Source: an uncultured delta proteobacterium (GTDB lineage: Bacteria; Desulfobacterota; Binatia; Binatales; Binataceae). Taken from it: a stretch of DNA of 64,000 bases. Where the stretch lies: assembly GCA_963699705.1 (NCBI GenBank), contig CAVOUW010000003.1, positions 2,161,776 to 2,225,775 of the forward strand, given 5' to 3'. The notes beneath the pieces were generated by a model, which saw only the letters and a program-made list of their open reading frames with translations, ran no database searches and was not told the DNA's origin. The translations under genes were made by a program, and so were the position numbers. Shown here in pieces: positions 21,790 through 41,728 of this stretch (position 1 is the stretch's first letter; each line of letters starts with the position of its first letter).

Positions 21790-22363
21790 AAATTTCGCGC
21801 GGACCGCAGTTGTCATCGCGCTCGCATTTGCGATCGCCGTTTTTTCAGGATGCGCCAAGTCTCCGCCAGTCACACGGCCGCCGAGCATCTATGCCAGCGC
21901 CGAGGATGTCGAGATAAACTTTCGCGACCGCACTTTCGTGCTCGGTGACAACAATGAAATCGCCGAAGTGCGCCCGCTCCGTTGGCGTAAGGACCAATTC
22001 CTCAAACTGCCATTCTGGTTCGGCGTCAACATTCTCGTGCCCGGCGTTAACGCGCCGAAGGAAGGCGACTTCTACGTCATCAGCGAAGCGACGCTCGAAA
22101 AGCCGCTCGACGCACCCGGCGAATGGATGATCGAAGCGGGCAGCTCGCTCGTCAAGCAGGAGACGGTCTTCGTCACGACCCGCACGCAATATACGGGTAC
22201 TGGAAAAATTCTGCCGACCATCGTGCAATACATGGGCAAACGCGAATTCAAACGCTCCGACGGCAAGACCGTGCAAATCCCCGTGCTGCGCGAGGTCTCG
22301 CTGCCGATGAAATGGACGCTCGGCGGCCATATCCCCGCCGACTACGCGAGATATCACACATGA
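21764..22363 (+). CDS. lipoprotein of unknown function (paralog 1)
   Basis: Proposed TTG start at 21764 gives LPRITPRPENFARTAVVIALAFAIAVFSGC (lipobox FSGC) and overlaps the LLM gene 3' end. It shares motifs with the next gene (WRKDQFLKLPFWFGVN, TRTQYTGTGKILPTIV, VPVLREVSLPMKW). Confidence 0.5.
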   Translation: MPRITPRPENFARTAVVIALAFAIAVFSGCAKSPPVTRPPSIYASAEDVEINFRDRTFVLGDNNEIAEVRPLRWRKDQFLKLPFWFGVNILVPGVNAPKEGDFYVISEATLEKPLDAPGEWMIEAGSSLVKQETVFVTTRTQYTGTGKILPTIVQYMGKREFKRSDGKTVQIPVLREVSLPMKWTLGGHIPADYARYHT

Positions 22364-23010
22364 CTCGCGCCAGAACCTACGTCGCCGCGATTGCAATGAC
22401 GCTGATGGCGCTCGCAATCGGATGCACTCCCGACAAAGCGCTCGATTTCGGCCCGGTCGGCGAAATCACCACGCCGCCCGAAGATCAGTTGAGCCGCGAC
22501 ATCATGCGCGATTTCGCCGGCCGCGATTTCAATCTCGACAACAACGATCACGAGGCGCACATCAGCCTCACCGATTGGAAGCCCGGCCGCCGCATCATCA
22601 TGCCGTACTGGCTCGGCGTGAACCCGCTCTACCCCGGGTTTTTGCGCCCAACCGTCGGACATCTATATGTGATGAGCCAATCGACGCTAGTCCGCCCACT
22701 CGGTAACCGCCCGCTCGGCAACAACCAAAACGAATACCTGATTCGCGCCGGCTCGAAACTCTTCAAGAGCGACACCGTCTTCGAAGCCACGCACACGCAC
22801 TACACCGACACCGGCGGAATGCTCCCGACGGTAGTCCGCTTCACCGGCACGCGAATAATCACCGTCCCTAAGGACGCCCCCGCCACAGGAACAATCACAG
22901 AAAAGGTCCCGGTGTTACGCGAAGTGTCGATGCCAATGCACACGGCGTCGGATCAGGATTTATCCGGCTACGCGAAGTTCGAAGCGGTCGCTGCTACTCG
23001 ATCGCCATAG
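22359..23010 (+). CDS. lipoprotein of unknown function (paralog 2)
   Basis: MTRARTYVAAIAMTLMALAIGC (lipobox AIGC). It overlaps paralog 1 by ATGA (22359..22363). Paralogous motifs: WKPGRRIIMPYWLGVN, THTHYTDTGGMLPTVV, VPVLREVSMPMHT. Confidence 0.6.
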
Positions 23011-23096
23011 CGCCTAAAGATTTTTCCTTCGTTTCTCAGATTATCCAAAATGAAGGAAAATAGTCCGTTCAACGAATTATCGGAGGAACTTGCCGC

Positions 23097-23519
<423 letters not shown>

Positions 23520-23524
23520 CGCCC

Positions 23525-25525
23525 TTACGTCTCTTCGGATTCCTGCAGCGTTGCGGTTTGCAGCAACTCTGCCGGGACGTCTTCGAGGAAGCGCGACACG
23601 CGGCCCATCACGAAGCCGAAGTTGCGGTCGAACATGTGTATCGGATACGACAGGTACAGCTCGTCGCGCGCCCGCGTGCTCGCGACGTACATCAGCCGCC
23701 GCTCCTCTTCGATCTCATCGTCGCCGACACTTTGCGGTCCCGGGAACCGTCCATCCGCGGCCCAGATCAGGAACACCACTTTCCACTCGAGTCCCTTGGC
23801 CGAATGAATCGTCGTCAGCGTCATGTGCTCATCTTCCGAATCGGTCGCGAGCACCCCGTCGAGCGAATCATTCGGCGGCTCGAGCGCCATATCCGCCAGC
23901 ATCTGCTCGAGGCTCTTGTAGCGCTCCGTGAGATTCTGAAAATGTTCGAGGTCGCGTTCGCGCTTGGGATAATCGTCGGCGTACGCCTCGCGCATCACGG
24001 GCAGATAGTATTCGAGCGTCATCGCGATCTGCTCGGGCGGCCGCTTTTCGCCCGCGCGCAATTCCGCCAGCAGCGTGCCCAGTCGCTTGAGGCCGCTCTC
24101 AGAGCCACCGCGAGCCTTTTCAGCGAATTTCGCTACCGCTGCCGCTGGATCGTCGGATGCAACCAGCATGTCGATCGTCCTCTCCGCCGTGCGATGGCCG
24201 ATACCCTTCACCAGCGTCAGCACGCGCAGCCATGACACCGCGTCCGCAGGATTCGCGATCACTCGCAGATGCGCCAGCACATCCTTGATATGCGCGGTTT
24301 CTATAAATTTGAATCCGCCACGCTTGATGAACGGGATGTCGCGCCGCTGCAGCTCGAGTTCCAGGTCGAAAGAATGAAAGCTCGATCGAAACAGCACCGC
24401 GATTTCGTTGAGCTCGACGCCTTCTTCGCGCAACTCGAGAATCCGTTGCGCGACGAATCGCGATTGCATGTGCTCGTCCTGCGCGCGCACCAGGAACGGC
24501 CGAAAGCCGCCCTCGCGCTGCGTGAACAGCGCCTTGGTGTATTTTTCACCGGCGCGCGAGATCACGTCATTTGCGACGTCGAGGATCCCCTGGATCGAGC
24601 GGTAGTTCTCTTCGAGCTTCACGATCTTCGCGCCCGGAAAAATCGTGGGGAAGTCCATGATGTTGCGGAAGTTGGCGCCGCGAAACGAGTAGATCGACTG
24701 CGCATCGTCGCCGACCGCCATCACGTTGCGATGATTCATCGCGAGCAGCCGCACCAGGTCGGCCTGTATCAGGTTGGTGTCCTGGTACTCATCGATCATG
24801 ATGTAGCGATAGCTGTCCGACAGCCGGCGGCGCACGTTCTCGTATTGCTCGAGCAACTCCGCCAGCCGATACAGCAGGTCGTCATAGTCGAGCAGCGCGC
24901 GCTCGCGTTTGTAGCTCTCGTAATTTTTCGCGAGCTCGAGAATTTCCGTCTCATGCTCACCGAGATGCGGAAAATCGATCTCGATCTCCTCTTCGAGCGC
25001 GCGCCGTTTGTTGCGCGCCATGCTGATCGTCTCGGCAATCGTGCTCTTCTTCGGAAACCGGCGCTCGCGCGACCCGAGTCCCATCCGCGTCCGGATCAGG
25101 TTGATCACGTCTTCCATGTCCGATCGATCAAGGATGGTGAAGTTGGGCTTGAGGCCCATCGGCGCGCCATGCCGCCGCAGCACGTTGTTCGCGAATGAAT
25201 GAAACGTCCCGCCCGCGACCGCGCCCGCACGATCTCCAACCAGTTGTTCTGCGCGACGCAACATCTCTTGCGCCGCACGCCGCGTGAACGTCAGCAGCAG
25301 AATCGCGCCCGGCGGCACGCCGCTCTCGATCAAGCGTGCGACCCGATAGATCAGCGTGCGAGTCTTGCCCGATCCCGCCCCCGCAACCACCAGTAGCGGC
25401 CCGTCGCGATGCGTCACGGCCGCAAGCTGCGCGGGATTCAGCAGCTCGGCGTACTTGATTTTGAAGTTGCGCTCGTCGGCCGGCAGCGCCGGCTTTTCGC
25501 GCAGGTAAATTACCTTGTCGGCCAC
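23525..25525 (-). CDS. UvrD/PcrA/Rep-family ATP-dependent DNA helicase
   Basis: ELLNPAQLAAVTHRDGPLLVVAGAGSGKTRTLIYRVARLI...helicase motifs through to the C-terminus. The in-frame GTG at 25523..25525 is preferred. The ORF's first ATG (25639) would overlap the upstream BON gene by 75 nt. Confidence 0.75.
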   Translation of the reverse strand: MADKVIYLREKPALPADERNFKIKYAELLNPAQLAAVTHRDGPLLVVAGAGSGKTRTLIYRVARLIESGVPPGAILLLTFTRRAAQEMLRRAEQLVGDRAGAVAGGTFHSFANNVLRRHGAPMGLKPNFTILDRSDMEDVINLIRTRMGLGSRERRFPKKSTIAETISMARNKRRALEEEIEIDFPHLGEHETEILELAKNYESYKRERALLDYDDLLYRLAELLEQYENVRRRLSDSYRYIMIDEYQDTNLIQADLVRLLAMNHRNVMAVGDDAQSIYSFRGANFRNIMDFPTIFPGAKIVKLEENYRSIQGILDVANDVISRAGEKYTKALFTQREGGFRPFLVRAQDEHMQSRFVAQRILELREEGVELNEIAVLFRSSFHSFDLELELQRRDIPFIKRGGFKFIETAHIKDVLAHLRVIANPADAVSWLRVLTLVKGIGHRTAERTIDMLVASDDPAAAVAKFAEKARGGSESGLKRLGTLLAELRAGEKRPPEQIAMTLEYYLPVMREAYADDYPKRERDLEHFQNLTERYKSLEQMLADMALEPPNDSLDGVLATDSEDEHMTLTTIHSAKGLEWKVVFLIWAADGRFPGPQSVGDDEIEEERRLMYVASTRARDELYLSYPIHMFDRNFGFVMGRVSRFLEDVPAELLQTATLQESEET

Positions 25526-25563
25526 GTCGAACGTGATCCTACCACGCCACGCGACGCGATTGC

Positions 25564-26016
25564 CTATGGCAGCATCGGCCCGCTGCCCGACGGCAGTTGC
25601 CCGCCGTTTTTGTAGATGCCTTGCATCGTCTTGTTCCACAGTTGGTCGGGACTGTTGGGCGATTGCGCACTCGATGCGGCCGCTGCCGATCCCTGAGGCG
25701 CGCGCAAATCCTCGACGTGCGGATCGAGCAGAATCTGGTCAACCAAATTGACGCTCGGATCGTTCAAGTACGCATTCGCGATTCGTTCCGCATCGTTGCG
25801 TCCAAACTGCGTCGCCACAAAGCCGGTGAGTATCAATTGTTTACTGCCACCCGGCGACGTCGAGAACTGCGCGGTGACCATCGGCAGCTCGTTCATGTGA
25901 AGATACTTCGTGAGCGCATCGCTGGTCCCCTGATCGATCACGTAATCCTGCCCCCGCGCGACACCGCACAGACTCATAACGATGATCACCGACATGAATG
26001 CTTTCACTCGTCGCAT
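25564..26016 (-). CDS. secreted BON-domain protein
   Basis: A signal peptide (MRRVKAFMSVIIVMSLCGVARG), then ELPMVTAQFSTSPGGSKQLILTGFVATQFGRNDAERIANAYL (BON-like), then a Ser/Ala/Pro-rich tail. The start is chosen at ATG 26014..26016. Confidence 0.5.
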   Translation of the reverse strand: MRRVKAFMSVIIVMSLCGVARGQDYVIDQGTSDALTKYLHMNELPMVTAQFSTSPGGSKQLILTGFVATQFGRNDAERIANAYLNDPSVNLVDQILLDPHVEDLRAPQGSAAAASSAQSPNSPDQLWNKTMQGIYKNGGQLPSGSGPMLP

Positions 26017-26109
26017 CACCATCCTCGACGATACCTGACGCGCTCGAAGAAAAGAAAACGCGGGCGTCATCTTCAACGCCCGCGCCTCTTTGTGTTTGCG
26101 ATTATCGGT

Positions 26110-27145
26110 TTACGGAACCTGGATCTGCTGAATCTGCGCAGTCTCTTTCTGCACTACCGCGGGAGGAAGCGGCGCGTACTTCAGGTCCGGCGCGTAGGTC
26201 TGTCCCTCGGTCAGCGCCCAGCCCAGGAACTTCTTGATCTGCTCGCCGACTTCCTTGTTGGTCTGCTTCTGATAAACCAGCAGCCACGTGAACGACGAGA
26301 TCGGGTACGCATCGGGGCCCGGCGCGTCCGTGATCGACACGCGGAAGTCCGCCGGCATGTTGCCCGCCGTTGACGCCGCCGCGGCCGTCACGCCCGCCAG
26401 GCTCGCGTCGACCCAGTTGCCCGCTTTGTTCTGGATCTGCGCGAATGGAATTTTGTTGTTGAGCGCGTAGATCAGCTCGACGTATCCGATCGAGCCGGGC
26501 GTCTGCTGCACCAGCGCCGTCACGCCCTCATTGCCCTTGCCGCCGAGTCCGGTCGGCCACTTGACCGCGGTGCCCTTGCCCGGATCCGACGCCCAGCTCG
26601 AGCTCACCTTCGAAAGGTAGTCGGTGAAAATATACGACGTGCCGCTGCCGTCCGACCGGTGGCATACGACGATGTCCTGCCCCGCCGGGATCTGCGCGCT
26701 CGGATTCAGCGCCCTGATCTTGTCGTCATCCCATTTCGTTATCTTGGCCGAGAAAATGTCCGCGATAACCGGACCCGTCAGCCGCAGCGTGCCGGTGAAG
26801 CCAGGCAGATTGTATGCGACCACGACCGCGCCCATCACGCTCGGGAAGTGCAGAATTTTTCCCGGCGCATCGGAAAGCTGTTGATCGGTCATCGGCGCGT
26901 CGCTCGCACCTAGATCAACCGTGCGATTCGACAGCATTCTGATTCCGCCGCCCGAACCAATCGATTGGTAGTTGAATTTGACCCCTGGATTTTCCTTCGC
27001 GTAAACGTCGAACCACTTGGAATAGATCGGATATGGGAACGTCGCGCCGGCGCCGTTGATTAATATGGTCGGCGAATCCGGATCGGCCGATTCCCGCAAT
27101 CGCAAGGAGTATGAAAAGGGCCAGAATGAGTCGTCGTTTGATCAT
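26110..27145 (-). pseudogene. pstS: phosphate ABC transporter substrate-binding protein PstS, apparently frameshifted within the signal-peptide region
   Basis: The mature PstS (ADPDSPTILINGAGATFPYPIYSKW...NYQSIGSGGG) is in the frame of ORF 26110..27105. The only signal peptide (MIKRRLILALFILLAIAGIG) is in the +1 frame of ORF 26915..27145. A TGA closes the PstS frame immediately upstream. Confidence 0.7.
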
Positions 27146-27383
27146 CTTTTGAACTTGCCTCGGTTAGTCGTGTCCGCTCCGCGAGTGGGGGTGCGGCGCG
27201 CAGAAGCTATGCACTGAACATTAACAGGGGATGAACCCGGCGTGTCGGCGAGTTGAAATCGTCCGCGTGGACCGCGATTCCCGTGGATAACCGCGCTTTG
27301 GCTGTAACCGTTTGCTTTTCTCGGCGTCGCTCGACGACAATTCAGATCGCCGTAACAATTCCGGTTCCTAAGCGTATTTTCCA

Positions 27384-28536
27384 ATGAGTAAATCACTCGA
27401 CGGAATCAACCTCGTCGAATTCGACTCCAACCTCGGCGCAGCTTACGCCGCGATGCTGCTCGCTGAAAACGGCGCGCACGCCATCAAAGTCGAGCCAATC
27501 GGCGGCTCGCGCCATCGCGTCACCCCGCACTTCCACGTCCTCAACCGCAGCAAGCGCGCGCTCGAGCTTGACCTCGACGATCCCGCATCACAGCCGCGCA
27601 TCGCCGATCTGATTCGATGGGCCGACATCGTCGTCACCGGCTTCACCCCGGCCCGCCTCAAACAACGGAATCTCGATCCAGAATCGATTCGCCGGATAAA
27701 TCCGCGCGCGATCGCGCTTGGCGTCCCTCCATTAGGCAGCCGCGGCCCCGACGCCGACTTCGACGCGAACGACGACCTTGTCGCGGCGCGCGGCGGAATC
27801 ACCGGCAGCCAATGGGCGCGCAGCGGCAATCCCGTCGCGCTGGTCTTTCCAGCGGCCAGTTATTCGGCCGGCGTGATGGCGGCGACCGCAGCGGTCGCAG
27901 CCCTCCTCGCGCGCGGTCGCGACGGAGGAGCAGGGCAGGCGGTCGAAGTGTCGCTTCTCGCCGGCGCCTTCTCGCTCCACACCGGCGGAATCCTGCGTCA
28001 CGAAAAAATGACGACGCTCTATCACGGGCCGCAGGATCCGCTCGGTCCGATTCCGGTTTATCGTCTGTTCGAAGCCGCCGACGGCAAATATCTGTTCGCC
28101 GCATGCGGCAACGCGACCTTCTGGGGCAAGTTTGCAATCGCAATCGATCGCCCCGATCTCGTCGGCGACCCGCGTTTCGAAAATGCGCCGTGGGGAATCG
28201 CGCAGGAACACTGGCAGCCGCTCAAGGACATCGTCGAGCCGATCATTCGCACCAAGTCGCGCGACCAATGGCTGAGCATCCTGCGCGAGGCCGACGTTCC
28301 ATGCGCTCCCGTGATGTCGCGTCACGAGTTTATCGATCACCCGCAGACGCGCTGCGCTCGGGATGCGCCATGAAATCGACGACCCCACTCTCGGCCGCAT
28401 GATTCAGATGGGCCTGCCGGTCTTTCTCAACGATACGCCCGGCGAAATCACCGGCGCGGCTCCGAAAAAGGGCGACGATCGCGCGGCCTTGCAATGGCTT
28501 CGAGAGCCAACCCGCGCCATCTCGCTAGAAATGTAA
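27384..28536 (+). pseudogene. CaiB/BaiF-family (class III) CoA-transferase, apparent 1-nt frameshift near the C-terminus
   Basis: The ORF stops at 28373 (…DHPQTRCARDAP*). The conserved C-terminal block continues in frame +1 (MRHEIDDPTLGRMIQMGLPVFLNDTPGEITGAAPKKGDDRAALQWL…EM*) to 28536. Removing one t at about 28351 restores …PQTRALGMRHEIDDPTLG. Confidence 0.7.
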
Positions 28537-28579
28537 GCCGCGTGTCGCTGAAAAAGGGCCTCCGCTCGATGGGGTCACG

Positions 28580-29710
28580 GTGCTCGACTTCGCCAGCTAC
28601 ATCGCCGGTTCGTACGGGCCAATGATCCTCGCGCAACTCGGCGCCAAAGTTATCAAGATCGAAAGCCTCGAGGGCGATTCGTTCCGCCATTTCGGCTTCG
28701 GCTTCCTCGGATGGAACCAGGGCAAGCGCGGCCTCGCACTGAATCTTACGACTGACCAGGGCCGCGAAATCATTCACGGACTCGCAGACAAAGCGGACAT
28801 CGTGGTCGAGAACCTGCGCCCGGGCCGGATGCGCAAGTTCGGCTTCGATTACGAAAGCCTCGCCGCGCGCAACCCGCGCATCATCTATATGTCGGTCAAC
28901 GCGTTCGGAAATCGCGGCCCCGAACACAATCAGCCCGGCTTCGATCCGCTGCTGCAGGCGCGCTCGGGCGTAATGGCGGCGCAGGGCGGCCATCACGGGC
29001 ATCCGGTGTACTTGACCTGCGCGATTTGCGATTACGGCGCCGCAATGCTCTCCGCGTTCGGATGCGTCCTCGCACTGCGTGCGCGCGAAATCACGGGACG
29101 CGGGCAATTCTGCGAGACCTCGCTCTTGCAATCCGCGATGGCGTTTCAGGCCGGCGAGTTCGCCTTCTATTCCGGCCGCCCCGACATGGAAAACGGCAGC
29201 TCTGAGAATCGCGGACGCTCCGCCGTTTCGCGCGCCTATCAATCGCGCGATGGCGAATGGCTATTCATCTCACTATCAAATGAAACTCAGTGGCTCGCGC
29301 TACTGACTATTCTGCCCGAACTGCGGAATACTAACTGGGATACGGCGCTAGCGGCTCCGAACGAAGGATCCCTCGCGACCGCACTGGCAGAGCAATTCGC
29401 CAGGCTCAATCGCGACGACGCACTCGCAGCGCTAAAGAAATCCGCAATCCCGGCGACACCGGTAAATCACACGCGCGAACTGTTCGATGATCCCCAGGTC
29501 GCCGCCAACGACCTGATCGCCGAGCTGTCCCATTCGGAATGGGGCCGCGTGAAGCAAACCGGGATGCTGACGAAGTTCTCCGCGACCCCCGGCAAGGTCG
29601 ATCGCGCCGCCCCGATGCTCGGCGAGCACACCGACGAGATCCTCCGCGAGTACCTCGGCTACTCGCCCGACCGAATCGCGAAGCTGCGCGCCGCCCACAT
29701 CATCAAGTGA
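28580..29710 (+). CDS. CaiB/BaiF-family (class III) CoA-transferase, second copy
   Basis: VLDFASYIAGSYGPMILAQLGAKVIKIES...GWNQGKRGLALNL. The listed GTG start truncates the conserved N-terminal GPLDGVTVLD motif (see findings). Confidence 0.8.
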   Translation: MLDFASYIAGSYGPMILAQLGAKVIKIESLEGDSFRHFGFGFLGWNQGKRGLALNLTTDQGREIIHGLADKADIVVENLRPGRMRKFGFDYESLAARNPRIIYMSVNAFGNRGPEHNQPGFDPLLQARSGVMAAQGGHHGHPVYLTCAICDYGAAMLSAFGCVLALRAREITGRGQFCETSLLQSAMAFQAGEFAFYSGRPDMENGSSENRGRSAVSRAYQSRDGEWLFISLSNETQWLALLTILPELRNTNWDTALAAPNEGSLATALAEQFARLNRDDALAALKKSAIPATPVNHTRELFDDPQVAANDLIAELSHSEWGRVKQTGMLTKFSATPGKVDRAAPMLGEHTDEILREYLGYSPDRIAKLRAAHIIK

Positions 29711-29721
29711 AAAAGTGATCG

Positions 29722-30264
29722 ATGGATCCTGAGGCGTCCGCCATCATCACGCCGCACCTGCTGGCCCGCGAAACCCTCCTCTGGTGCGGCCGCCCGCACG
29801 ACACGACCGCTCTTCGCTGGCGCGCCGGCATCGTCATCCTGGTAGGAATCGCGGCGCTCGCATTGCGATCGTTACCGCTCGACTCCGACCTCGCCGAGCG
29901 CGCCAACATCAATTCAATCCTCCTCGCAATCCTGGTGGTGGTCCTGATCGCAGAAGCGATGGTGTTCCATCGCTACCTGTCGAACACGTTCTACGGTGTA
30001 ACCAACCAACGCGTGATCATTGTCTCAGGGCTGCGCGAGCCAGAAATGATTGCGGTGTTTCTCGATCTGCTGAACACTCCGCAACTGCGCGTGCGTCGTA
30101 TCCGCGGCAATCTGGAATTGAGCCCGATGATTAGTCAGTCACCATTTCTGCCATTCGCCAACCCTAGTGTCGGACACGAATGCTATCGCCTGCTAGCCCT
30201 CGAGGACCCGCGACGAGTGTACGACCTCATCGTCGAATCCGCACACGCACTGAATAGTCAGTAG
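29722..30264 (+). CDS. bacterial PH-domain (bPH_2/YdbT-like) membrane protein
   Basis: Two TM helices, then YGVTNQRVIIVSGL (the YxxTNxRvi motif of bPH_2). Confidence 0.55.
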   Translation: MDPEASAIITPHLLARETLLWCGRPHDTTALRWRAGIVILVGIAALALRSLPLDSDLAERANINSILLAILVVVLIAEAMVFHRYLSNTFYGVTNQRVIIVSGLREPEMIAVFLDLLNTPQLRVRRIRGNLELSPMISQSPFLPFANPSVGHECYRLLALEDPRRVYDLIVESAHALNSQ

Positions 30265-30275
30265 CGACGTACTTA

Positions 30276-31373
30276 CTACACGATTCGCAAATAGTCAGGT
30301 GACGGCAGCGGCGGGAATTTTGCCGACGGCAGCGTCTGGTACCAATATGCTACCGACGCGATGTCGTCCTGGAGCGGCAGGAACTCGGCGCCCTTGCGCG
30401 GATCGCCCAGCCATCCGAGCGCCTGGATTGTCACCCGCAAATCCCGCGTGAACCTGATCGGGTCCGCGATATGCCATCGGTACATGCCGAATCTCTGCTG
30501 CGACGCGTACAGCCCGTCCGGCCGAATCACTTGCGCCAATCCTGCGTAGGGCGTGGTGAATTCGCGATAACCGCCGTTTTCCTTGCCGACGTCGAAATTG
30601 TACGAGCCGCAAAAATAATCCTCGGTGCCGGTGCCGCAGATCGTCGGAAACTCGGTATCGCCGTCGATGAAAAACTTGATCTCGCCTTCACCCCACCATC
30701 CGTTGTTGTTAACTCCCCACGCCATGTACGTGCCGACGTATTGCCCCCGCCCGGTTATCCCATCGACAATTGTGTAAACGGTTTTGTATGGCAGCGGATT
30801 GACGCGTCGGAACTGTGCATGGAAGTAGGCAGCGTCAGTAGCTACTTCAGTGAGTACATAGTTGATTTGATAAAATAGTATCATTGCCGTCTCGGCAGTA
30901 TTGGACATAGTAATCAGGCATCGCTTGCGAAATGGCATTTCCCAATAGCAATTGAACGCGCTGCCGGGATTTACGCACACCGCCAGCGACGAAACCTGCG
31001 CGTATTTGTTCCATCCACACGCGAAAAAATCTCCGACCGGACATTCCACCGACGGCTCCGGCGATCCGTCCCAGTAAATTCTGAGGATGCTCGAGCGCCA
31101 CTGTCCGGTCGGCGTCATCCAGATCTGCGCGATCGCGCCCGCGCCCGAAATATCGGCGAGTACTTTGACCTCGCCCGGCTCGATCACGACGTACGGCGCG
31201 ACCTTCCATCCGCGGCCGAGCTTTCGCGCCGGACTCTTGGCCAGGTCCGGCATTGCCATCGCACCTTTGCCCTTTTCGCCGGTCGGATTTTCGGGACTGA
31301 TCGATCGGCTCTCGGCATTTGAAAGTAGCGCGAGATTACCCAGGTGCATGCCGAGTCCGTTGAACGATGCCAT
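30276..31373 (-). CDS. DUF2961 (glycoside hydrolase family 172-like) protein
   Basis: MASFNGLGMHLGNLALLSNAESRSISPENPTGEKGKG...WGEGEIKFFIDGDTEFPTICGTGTEDYFCGSYNF is the DUF2961 signature. Confidence 0.75.
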   Translation of the reverse strand: MASFNGLGMHLGNLALLSNAESRSISPENPTGEKGKGAMAMPDLAKSPARKLGRGWKVAPYVVIEPGEVKVLADISGAGAIAQIWMTPTGQWRSSILRIYWDGSPEPSVECPVGDFFACGWNKYAQVSSLAVCVNPGSAFNCYWEMPFRKRCLITMSNTAETAMILFYQINYVLTEVATDAAYFHAQFRRVNPLPYKTVYTIVDGITGRGQYVGTYMAWGVNNNGWWGEGEIKFFIDGDTEFPTICGTGTEDYFCGSYNFDVGKENGGYREFTTPYAGLAQVIRPDGLYASQQRFGMYRWHIADPIRFTRDLRVTIQALGWLGDPRKGAEFLPLQDDIASVAYWYQTLPSAKFPPLPSPDYLRIV

Positions 31374-31446
31374 CGCGTGCGCCTCCTTGTGACGAGCCGC
31401 GCAATTCTAGTCAGGTCGCGTCGCGATGCGGAAGAAGTTCAGTCGC

Positions 31447-32409
31447 TTACAATTCGAGATCGACGGTCACGAAATCATGATCGGACACGCGGCGCATCAT
31501 GATCGGCGATCGCGGAGTGATCACCGCGGCCGTCCCGGCGATCGGATGGAGGTCGCGGACCGCGAGCCAATCAAGTTTTGGCCGCATCGATCGCGGAATC
31601 ACTCCGGAGAAGGTGAATGTCGGCCGATTCGCGACGTTGACGCCATCGATCTCGAGCCGATGCGCTCGCAGATGCTCGAACAGGGGCTCGTATGGCTGCG
31701 GCGCGCGAAACCGCGCGGGATTCGCGATCATCTCTCGCGCCGTCCAACGCAAATCATGCCAGCTCGACAGCTGAGTGGTCGTGGTATTCAAATCGCCGCC
31801 GAAAACGGCGCGCCCGGTGACCGGGAACGATTCGAGGTAAGTCGCCAGCTGACGCGCGCGCTCAGGCGGCGTGCATCGGCTATGCAGATGCGCGAGGCCG
31901 ACGGTCAATTCTCGACCGCCGAAATTGATTTTGGTGACGATTCCAGTCGGCGTTCCGACCCGCGACCAGTTCCGGTTGCGGCGCAACATGCGCGGCGTGC
32001 GCGGATTGTGCATCGCGACCGCGACCACATCATCGAATGGCACGGCGCTCAGGATCGCGTTGCCCAGGTACCCGCGGATTTCTCCGCTCTCGTTGATCAC
32101 GCCGAACTCGCGGACGTACGCGCAGCTCATCTCGAGCATCGATGCCATCTCCACCGCAACGTCGCGGCGCGCTGACGGCCTCGTCCCCTTCGCATTGACT
32201 TCGCACAAAAGGATGACGTCTGCGCCTTGCAGCGGCGGACGCTTCAGACATGCGACGATTTCGGGGAACCCTCTGCCCCCGGCCGCGTTGAGCAGCACGA
32301 CTCGCAGGCGCGATCCGGGCCGGCGCGCCGCGCGATTCACCACGATCGGCGGAAAAGGCGGTGCGAGCTTCGGGACAGCCGCGTTGAGATCGAGCGCGTC
32401 GCGATGCAT
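31447..32409 (-). CDS. endonuclease/exonuclease/phosphatase (EEP) family protein
   Basis: [11 protein letters not shown]...[10 protein letters not shown]...[10 protein letters not shown]...FGGDLNTT...[11 protein letters not shown]. Confidence 0.75.
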
Positions 32410-32418
32410 CGCCGGAAA

Positions 32419-34457
<2,039 letters not shown>

Positions 34458-34539
34458 CCGGTTCGGGCTTGCGCCCGGAATGACTGTCGGCGATTTTTTT
34501 CCTGGCTCATGAATCTCACATAATCCTATCTGCGTCCCG

Positions 34540-36365
34540 ATGCTCTGTCATACCGATCGAAACGACACCGTCGGATGGCAGAGGATGGAGCGCGCCAGTT
34601 ACAATTCGCTGCTATGGTCTCCGCATCCGCACCGCGCGACTCGATCGCATCGCAGCACGAATCGCACCGACGATTCGCGATTCCGCTTCTATGCCGGCGC
34701 CGTCCTCGTTCTCACTGCGATTCTTTTCTTCACGCGCCTCGGTGCGCGAGCGCTGTGGTCCTCGGAATTCCGATGGGCCGAAATCGCGCGCGAGATGCTC
34801 GTGACGCACAACTATTTCTGGCCGACGATCAACGGCCACGTCTATTACGACAAGCCGCTGGGCTCGTACTGGCTGGTAATTTTCTCGACACCGTTCACAG
34901 GAGGCCTCAACGAAGCGGCCACGCGTCTGCCCAGCGCGATCGCCGGACTGCTGGCGGTCGGCAATACTCATGCTGCTCGACGCGACGGCTCTACGACGCT
35001 CGCACCGCGATACTTTCCGGCGTCATCCTCGCGACCAGCTTCAGCTTCGTATTCTTTTCGCGCGACGCCAGCGCCGACGTCGAGACGATCGCCGGCGAAC
35101 TCGCGGCGCTGCTGCTCTTCAACTACAACGAGGAGCGCGGCACTGGAATCTGGATCGTCGGCCTGTGGCTTATCATGGCCGCGACGTCGCTCACCAAAGG
35201 CTTGCTCGGATTCGCGCTGCCGCTGCTGATGATTGGCGCATACTCATGCCTGCGCGACGGATGGGCACAATTGTTTCAGGAAGTTTCCCGAGGCTCACTC
35301 GCTGATCGAATACGGCGGCTCATCGATCGCAACCGATGGTTCTTCAACTGGTACACGATCGTTGGCATCGCGATCGGCGGCTTCGTTTACTACCTGCCGT
35401 TCGAAATCTCGGCGCGCATGATGGGCACGCAAAAGGGCCTCGCGATGGTTTATCGCGAGAACGTCGTGCGTTTTTTCCATCCTTTCGACCATCGCGGCCC
35501 TATCTACTTATACATCTACGTGATCTTCGGCCTGATGGCGCCATGGTCGGCGCTGTTGCCAGCCGCCCTGGTCGAAACGCACAGCTTGCGACGTGCCAAT
35601 GCCGAGCCGGCGCGCAGCGATCGATTCGCGCTGGTATATTTCTGGGCGACGTTCATATTTTTCACGCTGTCCGGATCGCGCCGCAGCTACTACATCCTGC
35701 CGATTCTGCCTGCCGCGGCGATGCTGGTCGCACGAACGCTCGCGTATCCCGGCGAACTACGCTCGACGTTCGCCCGCCGCTTGATGATTATCGGCTACGC
35801 GATCGTAGCGATCGCCGCTGTCGGAGGCATTATCCTGCTGATTCCGGCCTGGGCGGTTTTGCCGAGCCCTTATGACGCTCTGCCTGACCTGCCCGCGAAA
35901 TCCGCCTTCATAGTATTCTGGATTGTCTCAGTCGGCGCGGTCGTCTACGCGATTCGCAAATTCAGCCCATATCAAGTCGCAATTTCGATGGCGGCAATTT
36001 CCTACCTTGTGATGGCCTACATATATATCTTCGCGATGCCCGCTGCGGAGGCCTATCGGGGCGAAAAACCGTTCGGTTATGCGGTGCTGAACAAGATTGG
36101 CGGTTCCACGGATCACCTGGTCCTGTTCAAGACCGAGGGGCCGCTGTTCTATCTCAATCCGCCCAAGCCCCTGCCTGAGTTTGAAGACAAGCAGGACTTG
36201 CAGGATGCGATTGCGAATGGGGGCGCCAAATGGATGATTGTCCGCCGCCGCGACATGCCGAAGCTCGACACTGCGACGACGATTGAGCTTAGTGAGGCGT
36301 CATATCCGTGGGAGACCGATTACAATTTCCGGAATAAGGTGGTGCTGGTGAAGATCGGCAACTGA
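34540..36365 (+). pseudogene. GT39-family (ArnT/PMT-like) membrane glycosyltransferase, apparent frameshift(s) near codon 140
   Basis: N-terminus in frame 1 (RLGARALWSSEFRWAEIAREMLVTHNYFWPTINGHVYYDKPLGSYWLVIFSTPFTGGLNEAATRLPSAIAGLLAVG). The remainder is in frame 0 (…RRLYDARTAILSGVILATSFSFVFFSRDASADV… to 36365). A short ILMLL segment is readable only in frame 2 around 34960..34990. Confidence 0.65.
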
Positions 36366-36390
36366 GTCCGAAGGTCGTGCTGGATGCGAA

Positions 36391-36433
36391 GAACCTAACC
36401 CCTAACCCTTTCCCGAGCGGGAAGGGGAACCAG
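36391..36433 (+). repeat. family 2 GC-rich hairpin repeat (copy 1)
   Basis: GAACCTAACCCCTAACCCTTTCCCGAGCGGGAAGGGGAACCAG, with the stem CCCTTTCCCG/CGGGAAGGGG. It sits between the convergent GT39 and dnaN genes. Confidence 0.75.
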
Positions 36434-36450
36434 ATTTAAGGCATCGCTTG

Positions 36451-37593
36451 CTAGAGTCGCATCGGCATGACGACGTAGGTGTACTGCTGATCCGTCTCGG
36501 TTCTGATGACGCCGGGGCTGACGTCGTCGCTTAGTCCGAGTTCTACTGTCGAATCCGCTTCCTGCGAAATTACGCCGAGGGCTTGCTGTACGTATGACGC
36601 GTTGAATCCGATCGCGAATTCTTCGCTCTTGAAATCGACGTCGAGCGATTCGCTGGCTTCCCCGGTTTCGGGACTCGTCGATGAGACCGTCAGCGTCCCG
36701 GCCGATAGCGCGAATTTGACGCCGTGATATCGCTCGCTGGAGAAGATTGCCGCGCGTTTGATTGCCGCAAACAGCAGATCACGCTTTACCGTGATTTTGT
36801 ATTTCGACTGCTTGGGGATTACACCGCGATAGTCAGGAAATTCGCCTTCGACCAGCCGCATCGAGACTTCAGTCGCGCCGCGCTTCAAATACGCGAGCTG
36901 ACCTTCGAGGCTCAGGCGCACTTCCGGTTCGGTGCCGACATCCAGAATCTTGCGCAGTTCCGCGAGACCCTTTCGCGGAATGATCGCGCCGCTTGGCATC
37001 GCGAATCCCGGCACCTCGCGCTCGATCATCGCGAGGCGATGCCCATCGGTCGCGACCATCCGAACCGCTCCGGGAGCGTTGGACTCGACAAACACGCCGC
37101 TCAAGTTGTAGCGCGCTTCATCGGGACTGACCGCGAAGATCGTTTTGTCGATCATCTGGGCCAGCACTGTCGCTGGGATCGCCAGTTCGGCCTTGAGCTG
37201 TTTCTTCGCTGCGCCAGAATCCTTGCCGGTGCTCTGACTTGGCATCGCGGGGAAGCTGCGCGGATCGAGGCCCATCATTTTGAACTTCGCGCGCCCGCAT
37301 TTCAGCTCGACCCAATCGCCATCAAGCGTCGTCAGCGCGACTTCCTCGCCTTCGGTCTCGCGCACGATTTCAAAAAGTTTGCGCGCGTTGAGGGTCAGAC
37401 TTTTTTCCTTGCCGCTACACGCGACCTGGGTGCGAATTCCGACTTCGAGGTCGGTGGCGCTGAGCGTCAGCGCGTTTCCGTTTGGCTCGAGCAGGACGTG
37501 ACCGAGGATCGGAACCGTCGTGCGCCGTTCCACGATGCCCTGGACGAGTCCCAAACCGCTAAGCAGCGAAGCGCGCTCGATTGCGAGTCCCAT
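36451..37593 (-). CDS. dnaN: DNA polymerase III subunit beta (sliding clamp)
   Basis: MGLAIERASLLSGLGLVQGIVERRTTVPILGHVLLEPNGNALTLSATDLEVGI…three-domain clamp. About 380 aa. Confidence 0.9.
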   Translation of the reverse strand: MGLAIERASLLSGLGLVQGIVERRTTVPILGHVLLEPNGNALTLSATDLEVGIRTQVACSGKEKSLTLNARKLFEIVRETEGEEVALTTLDGDWVELKCGRAKFKMMGLDPRSFPAMPSQSTGKDSGAAKKQLKAELAIPATVLAQMIDKTIFAVSPDEARYNLSGVFVESNAPGAVRMVATDGHRLAMIEREVPGFAMPSGAIIPRKGLAELRKILDVGTEPEVRLSLEGQLAYLKRGATEVSMRLVEGEFPDYRGVIPKQSKYKITVKRDLLFAAIKRAAIFSSERYHGVKFALSAGTLTVSSTSPETGEASESLDVDFKSEEFAIGFNASYVQQALGVISQEADSTVELGLSDDVSPGVIRTETDQQYTYVVMPMRL

Positions 37594-37833
37594 GAATTGT
37601 TAGCCCGTCTTCCTATTCCGGATCTTTAGATCTCTAAAAAAGAATAGCAGTAATAGTAGGAGTTGTGGATTTGTTGATGGAGCCCGCAAGCGACCGAAAT
37701 TGAACGCCGATCGATCGCTGAAAAGCTGTCGGCGAAAAAACGGCTACTCGACAGGGCCGGCCGTCCGCGCACCGACCCTGTCGATAGCTCCAGGTTTATG
37801 CTCCCCTCGTCCACAGCCTCCCCCACAATCGAT

Positions 37834-39258
37834 TCACGCCGCATTCGCGCGGATCGATTTAAGCTCGCGCTCGATTTTCTCGATCGAGAGCCGAAAAGCC
37901 GAATCACTGGTCACGCGCCGCATGATCAGGTTGTACGCGTGAATCACCGTCGAATGGTCGCGCCCGAAATGTTCGCCGATGGTCGGAAACGAGCTGTCGG
38001 TCAGCTTGCGGCAGAGATACATCGCGACCTGGCGGCAGAATGCGATGTGCTGCGTGCGCTTCTTCGACTTCAAATCCGTCAGCCGGATATGGAAAAAATC
38101 CGCGACGGTTTTCTGGATCGATTCGACGTCGGGCTTCGCGTCGTGATTGCGAATCAAATCCTGTAGCGCCTGCCGCGCGAAGTCCACGGTGATTGCCGAT
38201 TGGTTGAGCGACGCGAGCGCCGCCAGCCGCGTCAGGCATCCCTCGAGCTCGCGAACATTCGACGAAACGCTCTGCGCGATATACATCGCGACTTCGGGCG
38301 CCAGTCGCAGGTTTTCGAGCACCGCCTTCTTCTGCACGATCGCGACGCGGGTCTCGAGGTCGGGCGGTGCGATGTCCGCGATCAAGCCCATCTCGAAGCG
38401 ATTGCGCAGCCGCTCCTCGAGCCCCGGAATTTCGCGCGGCACTTTGTCCGAGGTCAGGATGATCTGATGCCGTTCGGCATGGAGCGCGTTGAACGTGTGG
38501 AAGAATTCTTCCTGCGTGCGCTCGCGACCGGCCAGGAATTGCACGTCGTCGAGGATCAAAGTATCAACGCGTCGAAACTTTTCGCGAAACTCGTTCATTT
38601 TGTCGCGCCGCAGCGAGCCGATCAGCTCGTTCATGAAAATCTCGGCCGGCATGAACAGCACTTTCCGCGGCCGCTCGCCGACGGCGTAGATATGGTGCCC
38701 GATCGCGGTCACCAGGTGCGTCTTGCCCAGGCCGACCCCGCCGTAGATGAAAAGCGGGTTGTATTTTTCGCCCGGCTGATTGGCGACCGCCTGGGCCGCG
38801 GCATGCGCGAACTGATTGGCCGATCCCACCACGAACTCCGCAAAACTGTAGCGGGCGTTCAGGGTCGGATGACGATCTCCACGCGGCGCAGCCGCCGTGG
38901 TCGCGCGATTGGTCGCATACGCCTTGCCGTTACCGTTCCCGTTAGCATGGCCGTTGCCATTTGAATGGCCGTTGGCATGACCATTGGCCGGACGTTGTGG
39001 CGGCGTCACGGCCGCAGCATTCTCGCCCAGCGTCAGCCGCACCTCGATTTCGCCGCCGGCCTCGGCCGACAGCGCGGAGCGCATCATGCTCATGTAGCGA
39101 TCGTTGATCCAATCGCGAAAAAATCGGTTGGGCGCTTCGACCGTGACCGTCGAACCTTGATGAGCGACAAAATTAAGCGGCCCAATCCACGTCTCGTACC
39201 CGACCTGACCGAGCTCATCGCGCATACGGTCCGCAGCCCGCTGCCATAGTCCATTCAT
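37834..39258 (-). CDS. dnaA: chromosomal replication initiator protein DnaA
   Basis: [28 protein letters not shown]…[10 protein letters not shown] (Walker A)…DDVQFL…a C-terminal DNA-binding domain (HSTVIHA). ATG at 39256..39258 is preceded by GGGGGAA. The ORF opens at GTG 39276. Confidence 0.9.
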
Positions 39259-39345
39259 ATCGTTCCCCCTGACCACCCCGGAAGCCCAAGCCCGCTCCGG
39301 AAATTAGCGCGCCGGCATCGATCCGGCGCGAATTACGCACAGTCT

Positions 39346-39365
39346 TATCCACACCTGTGGATAAG
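39346..39365. promoter_or_regulatory. inverted pair of perfect DnaA boxes (TTATCCACA cc TGTGGATAA)
   Basis: Exact matches to the DnaA-box consensus at 39346..39354 and its reverse complement at 39357..39365, 88 nt upstream of dnaA. Confidence 0.75.
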
Positions 39366-39604
39366 CGGTTATTCCTTCGTTACAACCAACAATTTGACGG
39401 CACGACACGCCGGACTATCAACTCATCCGGGTTACGATCGGTTCTGTTAGGGTGAAAATTTTGTTCGACGATAGGGGCGATATACACGCGCTTCGGAGCC
39501 ATAGATCACGCGCCGCGAAATGAACCTGTCAGTGAAGATTGGTTCTTGTAAGTACGAAGTGTGCGGCCAAGTGAACGTGATAAACTTATTTCGTGGCGAG
39601 GACA

Positions 39605-39850
39605 AGTGCGCAAAAAAATTCGTCGCTATACGCGCGGAACGTAAAGGAAATTTCCCTGATCAGTGATCGCGCGCAGTGCGCACAAAATTTTGCATCGATC
39701 ATGCGATCGCGCATATCTGCTCTGGGAGCCATCATGCGCGATCGCAAATTTTCGCGTCTCGACGCAAATTTGTCACGCGATCGACGCGCGCGATCAAATT
39801 TTTCTTCGCGATCGAAAAAAAAATTTCGATCCCACGAGATCTTCGAGCAT
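39605..39850. repeat. AT-rich array of GATC-containing 13-mer-like repeats (candidate DNA-unwinding element of oriC)
   Basis: At least 6 copies of (C)GCGATCG(C/A)AAATTTT-like units (GTGCGCAAAAAAATTCG, GTGCGCACAAAATTTTGCATCGATC, GCGCGATCGCAAATTTTCG, GACGCAAATTTGTCACGCGATCG, GCGCGATCAAATTTTTC, GCGATCGAAAAAAAAATTTCGATCC). There are 8 GATC sites within about 150 bp. Confidence 0.55.
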
Positions 39851-39855
39851 TCGCG

Positions 39856-41154
39856 GTGACCTCACGAAAAAAATCAGATGAACTCGTCAAGCGCGCCAGT
39901 GTTAACATTCCTGGTGCGGTGAATTCTCCCGTGCGCGCGTGGAAGGCAGTTGGTGCTGCTCCAATTTTCATCGAGAGTGGCAACGGTGCAACAATCACTG
40001 ACGCCGACGGCAACAATTTTCTCGACTACGTTTGCTCCTACGGACCCGCGATTCTCGGACATGCTGATCCACGCGTCATGCGCGCGATCGCAGAGCAATC
40101 GCGATTGGGCTTGGGTTTCGGCGCGCCGACGCGGCTCGAAGTTGAGCTCGCCGAATTGATCTTGTCGTCGATCGAATGTGCACAAAAAGTAAGATTGGTT
40201 ACTTCGGGAACCGAAGCTGGTCTCACTGCGATCAGACTCGCGCGCGCCGCCACCGGTCGCGAGAACATAATTAAGTTTGACGGGTGCTATCACGGTCATA
40301 GTGACTCGATGCTGGTGCGCGCCGGTTCGGGCGGGATGACTCTTGGTCAACCCGACAGCGCTGGAGTTCCGGCCGCGCTCGCTGCGATGACGATGGTTGC
40401 GCGATATAACGCGATTGAAACGGTCGAAGGTTTATTTCGCGCCGCGCCTGGGAAAATCGCTGCCGTGATCGTCGAGCCCGTCGCCGCTAACATGGGCGTA
40501 GTAAATCCTGACCCGGGTTCACTGAAAGCGCTGGCCGAAATCGCTCACAACAACGGTGCGCTGCTGATCTGTGACGAAGTTATATCGGGGTTCCGACTCT
40601 GCTTCGGCTCCGTTGCCGAAAGCATGGGCATCGCGCCCGACTTGATCATGCTCGGAAAAATAATCGGCGGCGGGATGCCTGTGGGCGCGATCGCCGGCCC
40701 GTCGAAGATCATGGACCTGCTCGCGCCGGTCGGTCCGGTTTATCAAGCGGGCACATTGTCGGGAAATCCGCTTTCTGTTCGCGCCGGTCTCGAAACACTT
40801 CGCATCCTCAAAGACAGCAATCCATACGCCGCGCTTGACGACGCCGGCGCCCGACTCCAAGCCGGCCTCCGCGATGCTCTGAAAAAAACCGGACAGCCTG
40901 GATGCGTTAATCGCGCCGGCTCCCTACTGACGATGTTCCTCGGGCCCGAGCGGGTGCGCGACGCCGACGAAGCTCGCACGTCCGACGCCGCGAAGTTCGC
41001 TAAATTTTTCCATGGCATGATCGATCGCGGCATCAATATCCCGCCGTCGCAATTCGAAGCTATGTTCATCTCGACCGCACACACCAACACAGACATCGAC
41101 CGCACGATCGCTGCCGCCAACGAATCTCTGCGGGATCTCTCGCGAGCGACATGA
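39856..41154 (+). CDS. hemL: glutamate-1-semialdehyde 2,1-aminomutase
   Basis: (GTG)TSRKKSDELVKRASVNIPGAVNSPVRAWKAVGAAPIFIE…GTEAGLTAIRLARA…the PLP-lysine region GKIIGGGMPVGA. The start is uncertain (see findings). Confidence 0.85.
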   Translation: MTSRKKSDELVKRASVNIPGAVNSPVRAWKAVGAAPIFIESGNGATITDADGNNFLDYVCSYGPAILGHADPRVMRAIAEQSRLGLGFGAPTRLEVELAELILSSIECAQKVRLVTSGTEAGLTAIRLARAATGRENIIKFDGCYHGHSDSMLVRAGSGGMTLGQPDSAGVPAALAAMTMVARYNAIETVEGLFRAAPGKIAAVIVEPVAANMGVVNPDPGSLKALAEIAHNNGALLICDEVISGFRLCFGSVAESMGIAPDLIMLGKIIGGGMPVGAIAGPSKIMDLLAPVGPVYQAGTLSGNPLSVRAGLETLRILKDSNPYAALDDAGARLQAGLRDALKKTGQPGCVNRAGSLLTMFLGPERVRDADEARTSDAAKFAKFFHGMIDRGINIPPSQFEAMFISTAHTNTDIDRTIAAANESLRDLSRAT

Positions 41155-41213
41155 AAGCCGACTAGTGTTTTTCTTCACTGGTTGAGAATTCTCGAGGTCT
41201 TGAGGTCACAGCA

Positions 41214-41483
41214 ATGTGCCGAAACATCAAAACTCTTTTCAATTTCGAACCGCCGGTAACCGACGAAGAGGTTCGCGCCGCATCGCTCCAGTTCGTGCGC
41301 AAAATCAGCGGCTTCAACAAACCGTCGAAAGCAAATGAAGGTGCCTTCGCGGCCGCCCTCGACGAAATAGCCGGTGCATCCACTCGGCTTCTTCGCTCAC
41401 TTGAAACCAACGCACCATCGAGAAGTCGCGAGGAAGAAGCAGCAAAGGCGAAAGCCCGCGCTGCGGAAAGATTCGGTACCTGA
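41214..41483 (+). CDS. DUF2277 family protein
   Basis: MCRNIKTLFNFEPPVTDEEVRAASLQFVRKISGF is the canonical N-terminus of DUF2277 proteins. Confidence 0.7.
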   Translation: MCRNIKTLFNFEPPVTDEEVRAASLQFVRKISGFNKPSKANEGAFAAALDEIAGASTRLLRSLETNAPSRSREEEAAKAKARAAERFGT

Positions 41484-41503
41484 TCGCTCAAGGTGAATCA
41501 CGA

Positions 41504-41719
41504 TTGCCATTGATCCAGGGAAAATACGCGCGCCCGCTTGCGATGGCGCTTGAGATCCCGATGTCGCCAATCGCCGGCGGCATCTTCGGCCACTACATCG
41601 ACATGTACTTCCACACCGAGCCCTGGTTCACCGGAATTCTCGCGTTCGCGGGATTCATTCACTCAGTCGTGACTGTTATCAGGATCGCCAGGGAAGTTCC
41701 CCCGACTTCGCAAGGCTAG
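41504..41719 (+). CDS. atpZ: AtpZ/AtpI-like small membrane protein preceding the F0 genes
   Basis: 71 aa, 2 TM. TTG start with an AAGGTGA Shine-Dalgarno 8 nt upstream. It lies directly upstream of atpI-atpB-atpE. Confidence 0.5.
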   Translation: MPLIQGKYARPLAMALEIPMSPIAGGIFGHYIDMYFHTEPWFTGILAFAGFIHSVVTVIRIAREVPPTSQG

Positions 41720-41728
41720 CGACCCCGC

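Follow-up and report, generated by a model that had tools for sequence, protein, structure and literature searches.

Gene content and one-base lesions of the window

The stretch of DNA that was analysed (64,000 nucleotides, hereafter the window) belongs to a 3.27-Mb single contig, a metagenome-assembled genome of the soil bacterium Candidatus Binatus. Its genes were compared with those of a second assembly (ENA ERZ25039470 contig_137) and of outgroups with 87-93% nucleotide identity (L003, L083, L165, L166-170 and L175), and lesion positions were placed by alignment to contig_137 and these outgroups (Table 1). Eleven one-base frameshifts were located in the window, one of them (28353) common to both assemblies and 10 not found in contig_137, namely nine +1 insertions in coding sequence and one deletion (57358). 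The junctions listed in a first-pass annotation of the same DNA are real, each lying no more than about 20 bases from an identifiable one-base lesion. That list held up for pstS, for the two shifts in yyaL and for the two in the acyltransferase-3 gene; it gave the GT39-type gene a single indel where three +1 insertions were found, and it left out the frameshift at 57358, which splits a conserved gene of 720 aa.

Table 1. Genes and sites carrying one-base length changes in the window and in the second assembly
Assembly	Feature	Position	Strand	Change
Window	pstS (PBP_like_2)	26110..27145	-	extra base at 27065, + strand AAT[A]TGG
Window	fused two-domain CaiB/CoA_transf_3 gene, broken twice	27384..29710	+	extra T at 28353 and 28534
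Window	yyaL (Thioredox_DsbH/DUF255)	32419..34457	-	two extra T (+ strand) at 32454 and 32631
Window	spacer yyaL/PMT	34469	.	intergenic extra T
Window	PMT/PMT_2 (GT39-type) glycosyltransferase	34614..36365	+	+1 insertions at 34662 (T), 34960 (G) and 34978 (C)
Window	conserved 720-aa membrane protein, no Pfam match	56611..58772	+	one base missing at 57358
Window	Acyl_transf_3 gene	58769..59907	+	extra G at 59108 and 59482
contig_137	VWA_CoxE	3461		G-run length change
contig_137	metallo-beta-lactamase-fold gene	20375		G-run length change
contig_137	CaiB	28257
contig_137	Smr	44234		G-run length change
contig_137	carboxyltransferase	50462
contig_137	fumarase	53591		G-run length change

Conserved family blocks had been described as split between frames, and Pfam profile coordinates on the ORF fragments of the window agree. 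Through the extra base in pstS, signal peptide and mature domain fall into different frames, the PstS domain itself remaining complete; the orthologue is intact (344 aa) in contig_137 and L165, and the site reads AT in the window, T in contig_137 and A in L165. The CoA_transf_3 profile is matched from 1 to 324 in ORF 27384..28373 and from 330 to 365 in the next frame (28363..28536), and the second copy begins at profile position 7. Relatives carry a single fused gene, 771-775 aa long (812 aa in one of them), with HPQTRALGMRHEIDD, so that the earlier description of two broken CaiB-type CoA-transferases was correct in its frameshifts and not in its gene number. The extra T at 28534 is specific to the window and lies directly after an ATG in the inter-domain linker. 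This ATG is present in both assemblies (LEM in the window, LKM in contig_137), and relatives have Thr, Ile or Ala. At 28534 the outgroup alignment falls in the divergent linker and the match is weak.

The orthologue of yyaL in contig_137 is intact at 678 aa. Its first site (32454) reads TCT in the window, CT in contig_137 and TC in L165 and L003; its second (32631) reads TGA, GA in contig_137 and TG in L165. The three insertions in the PMT gene change its length by +3 in total, and ORF 34575..36365 consequently remains open; the PMT profile is matched only from 108 to 240, beginning at residue 139 of this ORF. Intact orthologues have 582 aa in contig_137 and 595 aa in L165. Site 34978 reads CG in the window, G in contig_137 and L165, and C in L083; site 34960 reads C+G in the window, where contig_137 shows C and both L165 and L083 show G.

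In the window, the 720-aa gene is read as ORFs 56596..57360 and 56781..58772, while the full 720 aa are encoded in contig_137, L175 and other assemblies. The base that the window lacks belongs to a T/C polymorphism, with TTG in contig_137 and CTG in L175. For the acyltransferase, the profile is matched from 4 to 95 in one frame and from 214 to 319 in another, and the orthologue is intact (378 aa) in contig_137 and relatives. Site 59482 reads GGTGCG in the window, GTGCG in contig_137 and GGTCG in relatives, and site 59108 reads G+TAT, against TAT (Tyr) or GTC (Val) in relatives. Two further apparent indel pairs, 28518/28524 and 52137/52141, are equal-length substitution clusters with no frameshift, the latter synonymous.

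Comparison with related assemblies

The two assemblies are colinear over 2408..62907 at 99.2-99.4% identity (about 99.3%). The pstS, yyaL, PMT, 720-aa and Acyl_transf_3 genes are all intact in contig_137; the CaiB gene is the exception. contig_137 lacks ten of the 11 lesions, and none of the 11 occurs in an outgroup that covers it, the extra bases of the window being missing from every outgroup. Comparison with orthologous loci in relatives, proposed in the first-pass annotation, showed orthologues in frame at the lesion sites, and full-length proteins are present in more than 60 relatives at the genes truncated in the window.

A scan of genome and metagenome contigs with yyaL returned species-level relatives only (L003, with 89% nucleotide identity, and L083), which are usable as outgroups and not as strain-level controls. 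Three Logan contigs from run ERR10755948 were found via neighbouring small genes. With 0-5 mismatches and no indels relative to the window, these contigs form a third haplotype, differing from that of the window, and show strain diversity in the population; none of the three extends across a frameshift junction. No independent contig of the window's exact haplotype was found to span any junction. Exact look-up of the repaired window proteins (pstS, yyaL, PMT, Acyl_transf_3, the 720-aa gene and the second CaiB domain) found none on record. The truncated products that are on record come solely from the 3.27-Mb contig, so the frameshifts gain no independent support from this test, which has low power. 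A look-up of window 52914..54398 (fumarase) gave no match, to which the frameshift of contig_137 in that gene probably contributed.

contig_137 has six frameshifts of its own (Table 1), at genes that are intact in the window with full-length Pfam matches and that include housekeeping genes. Comparable errors thus occur elsewhere in another assembly of the population, which argues for an artefact.

Allele signature and sequence context

Each insertion was examined by deleting a neighbouring base in place of the extra base and asking whether an outgroup allele results. This was the case for 10 of 11 testable insertions in the window, including all nine in coding sequence, and the intergenic T at 34469 has the same signature as the coding insertions. 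Random insertions pass at a rate of 8.9% window-wide and 10-14% locally (binomial P 3e-10 to 3e-8). For 59108 and 59482, the presence of both alleles was predicted from protein polymorphism and then borne out in the DNA. All nine window-specific coding insertions fall on sites that vary among relatives. In seven of them the inserted base differs from the bases on either side; runs of at least 2 identical bases contain none of the nine, whose contexts have no common motif. SNPs are also denser around the frameshifts, averaging 6.8 within ±250 bp, whereas random positions average 2.9 (P about 0.01; P about 0.004 with both assemblies pooled).

Distribution among genes and substitution patterns

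The 10 window-specific events fall in six genes or fewer (P = 0.008). The housekeeping ORFs had been reported as intact, and the lengths of UvrD, MutS2, AsmA, DnaA, DnaN, IMPDH and the carboxyltransferase do equal those of their orthologues. Their sparing is weakly significant, with P = 0.019 if the 10 events are treated as independent and 0.09 if the six hit genes are counted as single events. The argument that random error would not spare housekeeping genes so consistently is borne out as regards non-uniformity; the lesions follow strain polymorphism rather than gene category.

Substitutions between the window and contig_137 are overwhelmingly synonymous, in the broken genes as elsewhere. 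Synonymous to non-synonymous counts are 11:2 for pstS, 6:1 for yyaL, 24:7 for the 720-aa gene and 13:7 for PMT, where none of the 20 substitutions is at a second codon position.

Origin of the frameshifts

Judged from the assembled sequences, the window frameshifts are very probably consensus or polishing errors of a mixed-strain long-read assembly and not mutations of the organism. Strains about 99-99.9% identical would co-exist in samples of this kind, and at a substitution between two of them the aligned reads would divide into two alleles. Long-read consensus or polishing may score an indel as cheaper than a mismatch; retention of both alleles in tandem would give a spurious +1 insertion, and loss of the variable base a -1 deletion. 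Later polishing would leave the site unrepaired, as no one correction is backed by a majority. The remaining sequence would be accurate, so that residual frameshifts would be confined to strain-variable sites, and since such sites would be denser in less constrained genes, the accessory genes would appear to be selectively damaged. We infer that the source sample held both alleles, and likewise on which platform it was sequenced and at exactly which software step the errors arose. A strain-mixture artefact was one of three readings offered in the first-pass annotation, and it is favoured by the absence of the lesions from contig_137 and by the presence of both alleles at polymorphic sites. Two SNP-dense genes that carry no indel, uvrD (22 SNPs) and adh_short (25 SNPs), count against it.

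Another of those readings was genuine recent pseudogenization, in which the strain of the window would have lost pstS, the CaiB gene, yyaL, PMT, the 720-aa gene and the acyltransferase under relaxed selection. Clustering of several lesions per gene in a few non-essential genes, intact housekeeping ORFs and the recurrence of the 28353 lesion in contig_137 would all suit such losses. Pseudogene-rich genomes, such as those of Mycobacterium leprae and recent host-restricted symbionts, likewise combine intact core genes with numerous frameshifted genes that are not essential. In those genomes, however, lesions are reproducible across isolates, substitution patterns are relaxed, and deletions and repeated-base slippage predominate, none of which is seen in the window. 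Only 28353 recurs in the 99.3%-identical contig_137, whose fumarase and carboxyltransferase would by the same reasoning also count as pseudogenes. The mostly synonymous substitutions in the broken genes do not fit relaxed selection, and for a gene to gain two to three independent frameshifts and no neutral substitutions, indels would have to arise far more often than substitutions. Spontaneous indels typically arise by slippage at repeated bases and are biased towards deletion, with +1 insertions outside identical-base runs the rarest class, and nine of the 10 lesions are of that rarest class. Moreover, no known mutational process would place the two alleles of an adjacent polymorphism next to each other. 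We consider such gene loss improbable.

Context-specific long-read errors at identical-base runs or methylation motifs, independent of strain mixture, had been the remaining suggestion. They describe the errors of contig_137 rather well, which are largely changes in G-runs, and the shared insertion at 28353, inside a (CG)n tract, is a possible case. For the window-specific insertions they are hardly likely, given the scarcity of identical neighbours, the absence of runs and of a common motif, and the coincidence of the inserted base with the alternative allele, which such errors do not predict (P about 1e-8). Programmed ribosomal frameshifting or recoding, by which the genes would stay expressed, has in its favour the single, unspecific point that the downstream frames are open and conserved. 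The corresponding sites are in frame in the orthologues of contig_137 and all relatives, one gene would need up to three shifts, and the sites have no slippery or stop-codon context in common; on the in-frame orthologues this explanation was in practice rejected, its probability being negligible.

Relation to known assembly errors

Merging of strains into one consensus has been reported for Flye at 97.6-98.7% identity (Strainberry paper, PMC8302730), and polishers have been found to mix haplotypes and to leave indels in heterozygous coding regions (Hapo-G paper, PMC8092372). The cases in these papers resemble the window in that indels persist or arise at two-allele sites and a haplotype chimera breaks coding sequences; they differ in that haplotype mixing and uncorrected indels are treated in general terms, and the side-by-side allele signature of the window is not described. 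Indels at identical-base runs in Nanopore metagenome-assembled genomes (Sereika et al. 2022, PMC9262707) are also one-base changes that truncate predicted proteins, and the G-run errors of contig_137 fit them, whereas the window insertions are on polymorphic sites outside such runs. The Microflora Danica / mmlong2 pipeline (Flye and one Medaka round) is a plausible analogue only.

The value of these observations is practical and not biological. Genomes from long-read metagenomes are entering reference databases, where their frameshifts are readily mistaken for gene loss or for relaxed selection on accessory functions. If the present genes were read as pseudogenes, the inferred metabolism would wrongly lose phosphate uptake, a CoA-transferase, a glycosyltransferase and an acyltransferase. 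An inexpensive check without reads is available: where deletion of a neighbouring base in place of the extra one yields an allele of relatives, a merged polymorphism is the most likely source of the frameshift.

The shared lesion in the CaiB gene

Among the frameshifts, only the shared one at 28353 might be real. The extra T (GACGCGC[T]GCGCTC) breaks the (CG)n tract, where L165 reads GACGCGCGCGCTC; the T allele occurs in no relative, and the site is outside the reach of the both-alleles model. A genuine fixed lesion, which we regard as possible though rather doubtful, would split the ancestral two-domain CaiB gene of this population, its first domain truncated and its second with a start of its own, as gene fission or an early pseudogene in progress. 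With the bases at 28353 and 28534 both removed, the gene reads as one ORF of 774 aa that is 93.7% identical to P0098.

Methods

The GH172 gene, which is intact, led by exact-protein look-up to a second assembly (contig_137, ENA ERZ25039470; 211 kb), and two more look-ups widened the comparison to window positions 2408..62907 (contig_137 sequence handles L163, L001 and L164). The window (G+C about 60%) sits on a 3,267,514-bp contig, and its relatives are named Candidatus Binatus in the sources. Outgroups at 87-93% nucleotide identity were L003 (Stordalen genome palsa_1089), L083, L165 and L175 (one 41.9-kb JGI contig), and L166-L170. Three Logan contigs from run ERR10755948 (L002, L172 and L174) were also compared.

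An insertion was scored as holding both alleles of a variable site when removing a base at most 2 positions away, in place of the inserted base, recreated an outgroup allele. For the acyltransferase-3 gene, this pattern was forecast from amino-acid polymorphism (Tyr/Val at the first junction, Ala/Ser at the second) ahead of the DNA.

Frameshifts in the two assemblies

The frame splits flagged in accessory genes by the first-pass annotation were seen again in ORF translations and in split Pfam profile coordinates. The PstS signal peptide is in frame 26915..27145 (-) and the mature domain in 26110..27105; the yyaL C-terminus lies within ORF 32030..32662; the PMT-type glycosyltransferase has its N-terminal membrane helices in ORF 34540..35229 and the remainder in 34575..36365; and three frames share the acyltransferase-3 gene. 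In these fragments, the PMT match was limited to profile positions 108-240, and Acyl_transf_3 was split into positions 4-95 and 214-319.

Window and contig_137 are colinear at 99.2-99.4% identity, and five of the genes broken in the window are full length on contig_137 (see table). ORFs repaired by deleting the extra bases and restoring the missing one had exactly the orthologous lengths and were 1-7 residues off the contig_137 proteins. The PMT gene (GT39) is indeed shifted, but by three insertions (net +3) rather than one. A further broken gene had been overlooked: it encodes a conserved 720-aa predicted membrane protein, its stop overlaps the acyltransferase-3 start, and the gene pair is kept in relatives (L175).

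Positions of frameshifts and other features (window coordinates; extra and missing bases in the window from alignment to contig_137)
Position	Gene or feature	Event	Window	contig_137	Relatives
27065	pstS (344 aa on contig_137)	extra base, window	AT	T	L165 A
27384..29710	two-domain CoA_transf_3 (CaiB)
28257	CaiB	frameshift, contig_137
28353	CaiB	extra T, both assemblies	GACGCGC[T]GCGCTC	GACGCGC[T]GCGCTC	HPQTRALGMRHEIDD; L165 GACGCGCGCGCTC
28534	CaiB	extra base, window
32454	yyaL (678 aa on contig_137)	extra base, window	TCT	CT	L165, L003 TC
32631	yyaL	extra base, window	TGA	GA	L165 TG
34662	PMT (582 aa on contig_137)	extra base, window
34960	PMT	extra base, window	CG	C	L165, L083 G
34978	PMT	extra base, window	CG	G	L165 G, L083 C
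56611..58772 (+)	gene without Pfam match (720 aa on contig_137)
57358	same gene	missing base, window
59108	Acyl_transf_3 (378 aa on contig_137)	extra base, window
59482	Acyl_transf_3	extra base, window	GGTGCG	GTGCG	GGTCG
3461	VWA_CoxE	frameshift, contig_137
20375	metallo-beta-lactamase-fold gene	frameshift, contig_137
44234	Smr	frameshift, contig_137
50462	536-aa carboxyltransferase	frameshift, contig_137; called as 234 aa
53591	class II fumarase	frameshift, contig_137; called as 344 + 167 aa
10786	IMPDH/fatty-acid desaturase intergenic	117 additional bases, contig_137
36365/36451	gene order break vs L165 + L175
51846..52907 (-)	353-aa protein
60816..63394 (-)	Tad-domain paralogues

Breakage of what had been described as two CaiB-type CoA-transferases was also seen, but in more than 60 relatives these are the halves of one fused two-domain protein (771-775 aa, one 812 aa). 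The first half ends at 28373 and its conserved C-terminus resumes in the next frame, the CoA_transf_3 match being split into profile positions 1-324 and 330-365. Deletion of 28353 and 28534 gave a 774-aa ORF, 93.7% identical over its full length to P0098 (a relative's CaiB protein). Variation in the Candidatus Binatus protein is greatest in the linker between the two domains.

Six frameshifts were specific to contig_137, four of them G-run length changes, and all of the affected genes except CaiB have full-length Pfam matches in the window. If a frameshift meant gene death, the contig_137 population would be without fumarase and a carboxyltransferase; consensus errors in both assemblies are the simpler reading. 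The proposed sparing of housekeeping genes is only weakly significant in the window (P = 0.019, or 0.09 with the 6 genes as single events) and absent in contig_137. Clustering of the 10 window events in at most 6 genes was significant (P = 0.008).

Origin of the frameshifts

Orthologous loci in related genomes, a comparison the first-pass annotation had proposed, held none of the window's extra bases in any outgroup, and the outgroup genes were intact; the window lesions are derived. Relatives vary at the insertion sites, where the window holds both alleles adjoining. The acyltransferase forecast held in the DNA, and 10 of 11 testable insertions passed the both-alleles test (coding sequence, 9/9), against 8.9% of random insertions window-wide and 10-14% within 50-200 bp of real sites (binomial P = 3e-10 to 3e-8). 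The sole deletion is on a T/C polymorphic site. The contig_137 lesion at 28257 fits the same pattern: in the window, CGC CCG comes directly after the A of an AAG codon and would encode Arg-Pro, as found at this position in P0090, another relative's CaiB protein. SNPs within ±250 bp averaged 6.8 at frameshift sites and 2.9 at random positions (P ~0.01; ~0.004 with both assemblies pooled).

Among the three readings offered earlier, this comparative evidence argues strongly for a consensus artefact of mixed strains, which very probably explains the cluster. We infer that in a mixed-strain long-read pile-up, a consensus model with indels cheaper than mismatches could fit two alleles best by writing both, one deletion per read would then suffice, and in later polishing neither repair would have a majority. 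In published work, polishers are reported to mix haplotypes, with indels left behind in coding regions that are heterozygous (PMC8092372), strains 97.6-98.7% identical are reported to be collapsed by Flye (PMC8302730), and Flye with one Medaka round is a typical soil long-read pipeline (PMC12313526). The Logan contigs had 0-5 mismatches to the window and 1-11 to contig_137, a sign that this population has three haplotypes or more; look-ups of repaired and truncated proteins found no independent contig that spans a junction and has exactly the haplotype of the window. The hits on accessory genes would reflect that the errors track polymorphism, of which less constrained genes tend to have more. 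Polymorphic housekeeping genes free of indels exist (uvrD, 22 SNPs), which fits if the risk falls solely on putative variable sites within the source sample.

Genuine pseudogenization is unlikely. Substitutions between window and contig_137 were overwhelmingly third-codon-position and synonymous, broken genes included. Purifying selection on these genes lasted at least until very recently, so that for a gene to gain two to three frameshifts independently, indels would have to arise at an implausibly high rate. It would also imply loss of the fumarase and carboxyltransferase broken in contig_137. Seven of nine coding insertions had no identical neighbouring base, unlike replication slippage. 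The sole lesion that may be genuine is 28353, for which the both-alleles model does not account: its extra T breaks up a (CG)n tract and was found in no relative compared. A systematic basecalling error common to the two assemblies could account for it, as could real damage to the two-domain CaiB gene. The frameshift cluster is no biological feature; it matters as a warning, and for the read-free check that it offers.

Other observations

Logan contig ends lie near differences between window and contig_137 (L002 ends at 31839, SNP 31846; L174 at 26733, SNPs 26794/26795), which is what an assembly graph that branches at strain variants would produce in the ERR10755948 sample. The additional bases at 10786 are flanked by a GTGA direct repeat and are a small structural difference between strains. 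G+C falls to 0.54 at 10-12 kb. From about 4 kb to the window end, GC skew stays negative and does not switch sign at dnaA/dnaN (36.4-39.3 kb) or in the 820-bp dnaA-hemL gap.

On JGI Ga0599160_0001007 (L165 + L175), a DUF1329 gene comes after PMT, together with sequence that matches window 63.7-64.0 kb and into which the 47.2-64 kb block runs; the dnaN-asmA block (36.4-47.2 kb) is absent. Such a gene order suggests that an inversion or rearrangement took place, one of its breakpoints being between PMT and dnaN. The 353-aa protein has Neur_chan_LBD and Neur_chan_memb matches and is a bacterial homologue of pentameric ligand-gated ion channels. The adjoining Tad-domain paralogues (416 and 443 aa ORFs, ~75-77% DNA identity) come after two TadE genes.
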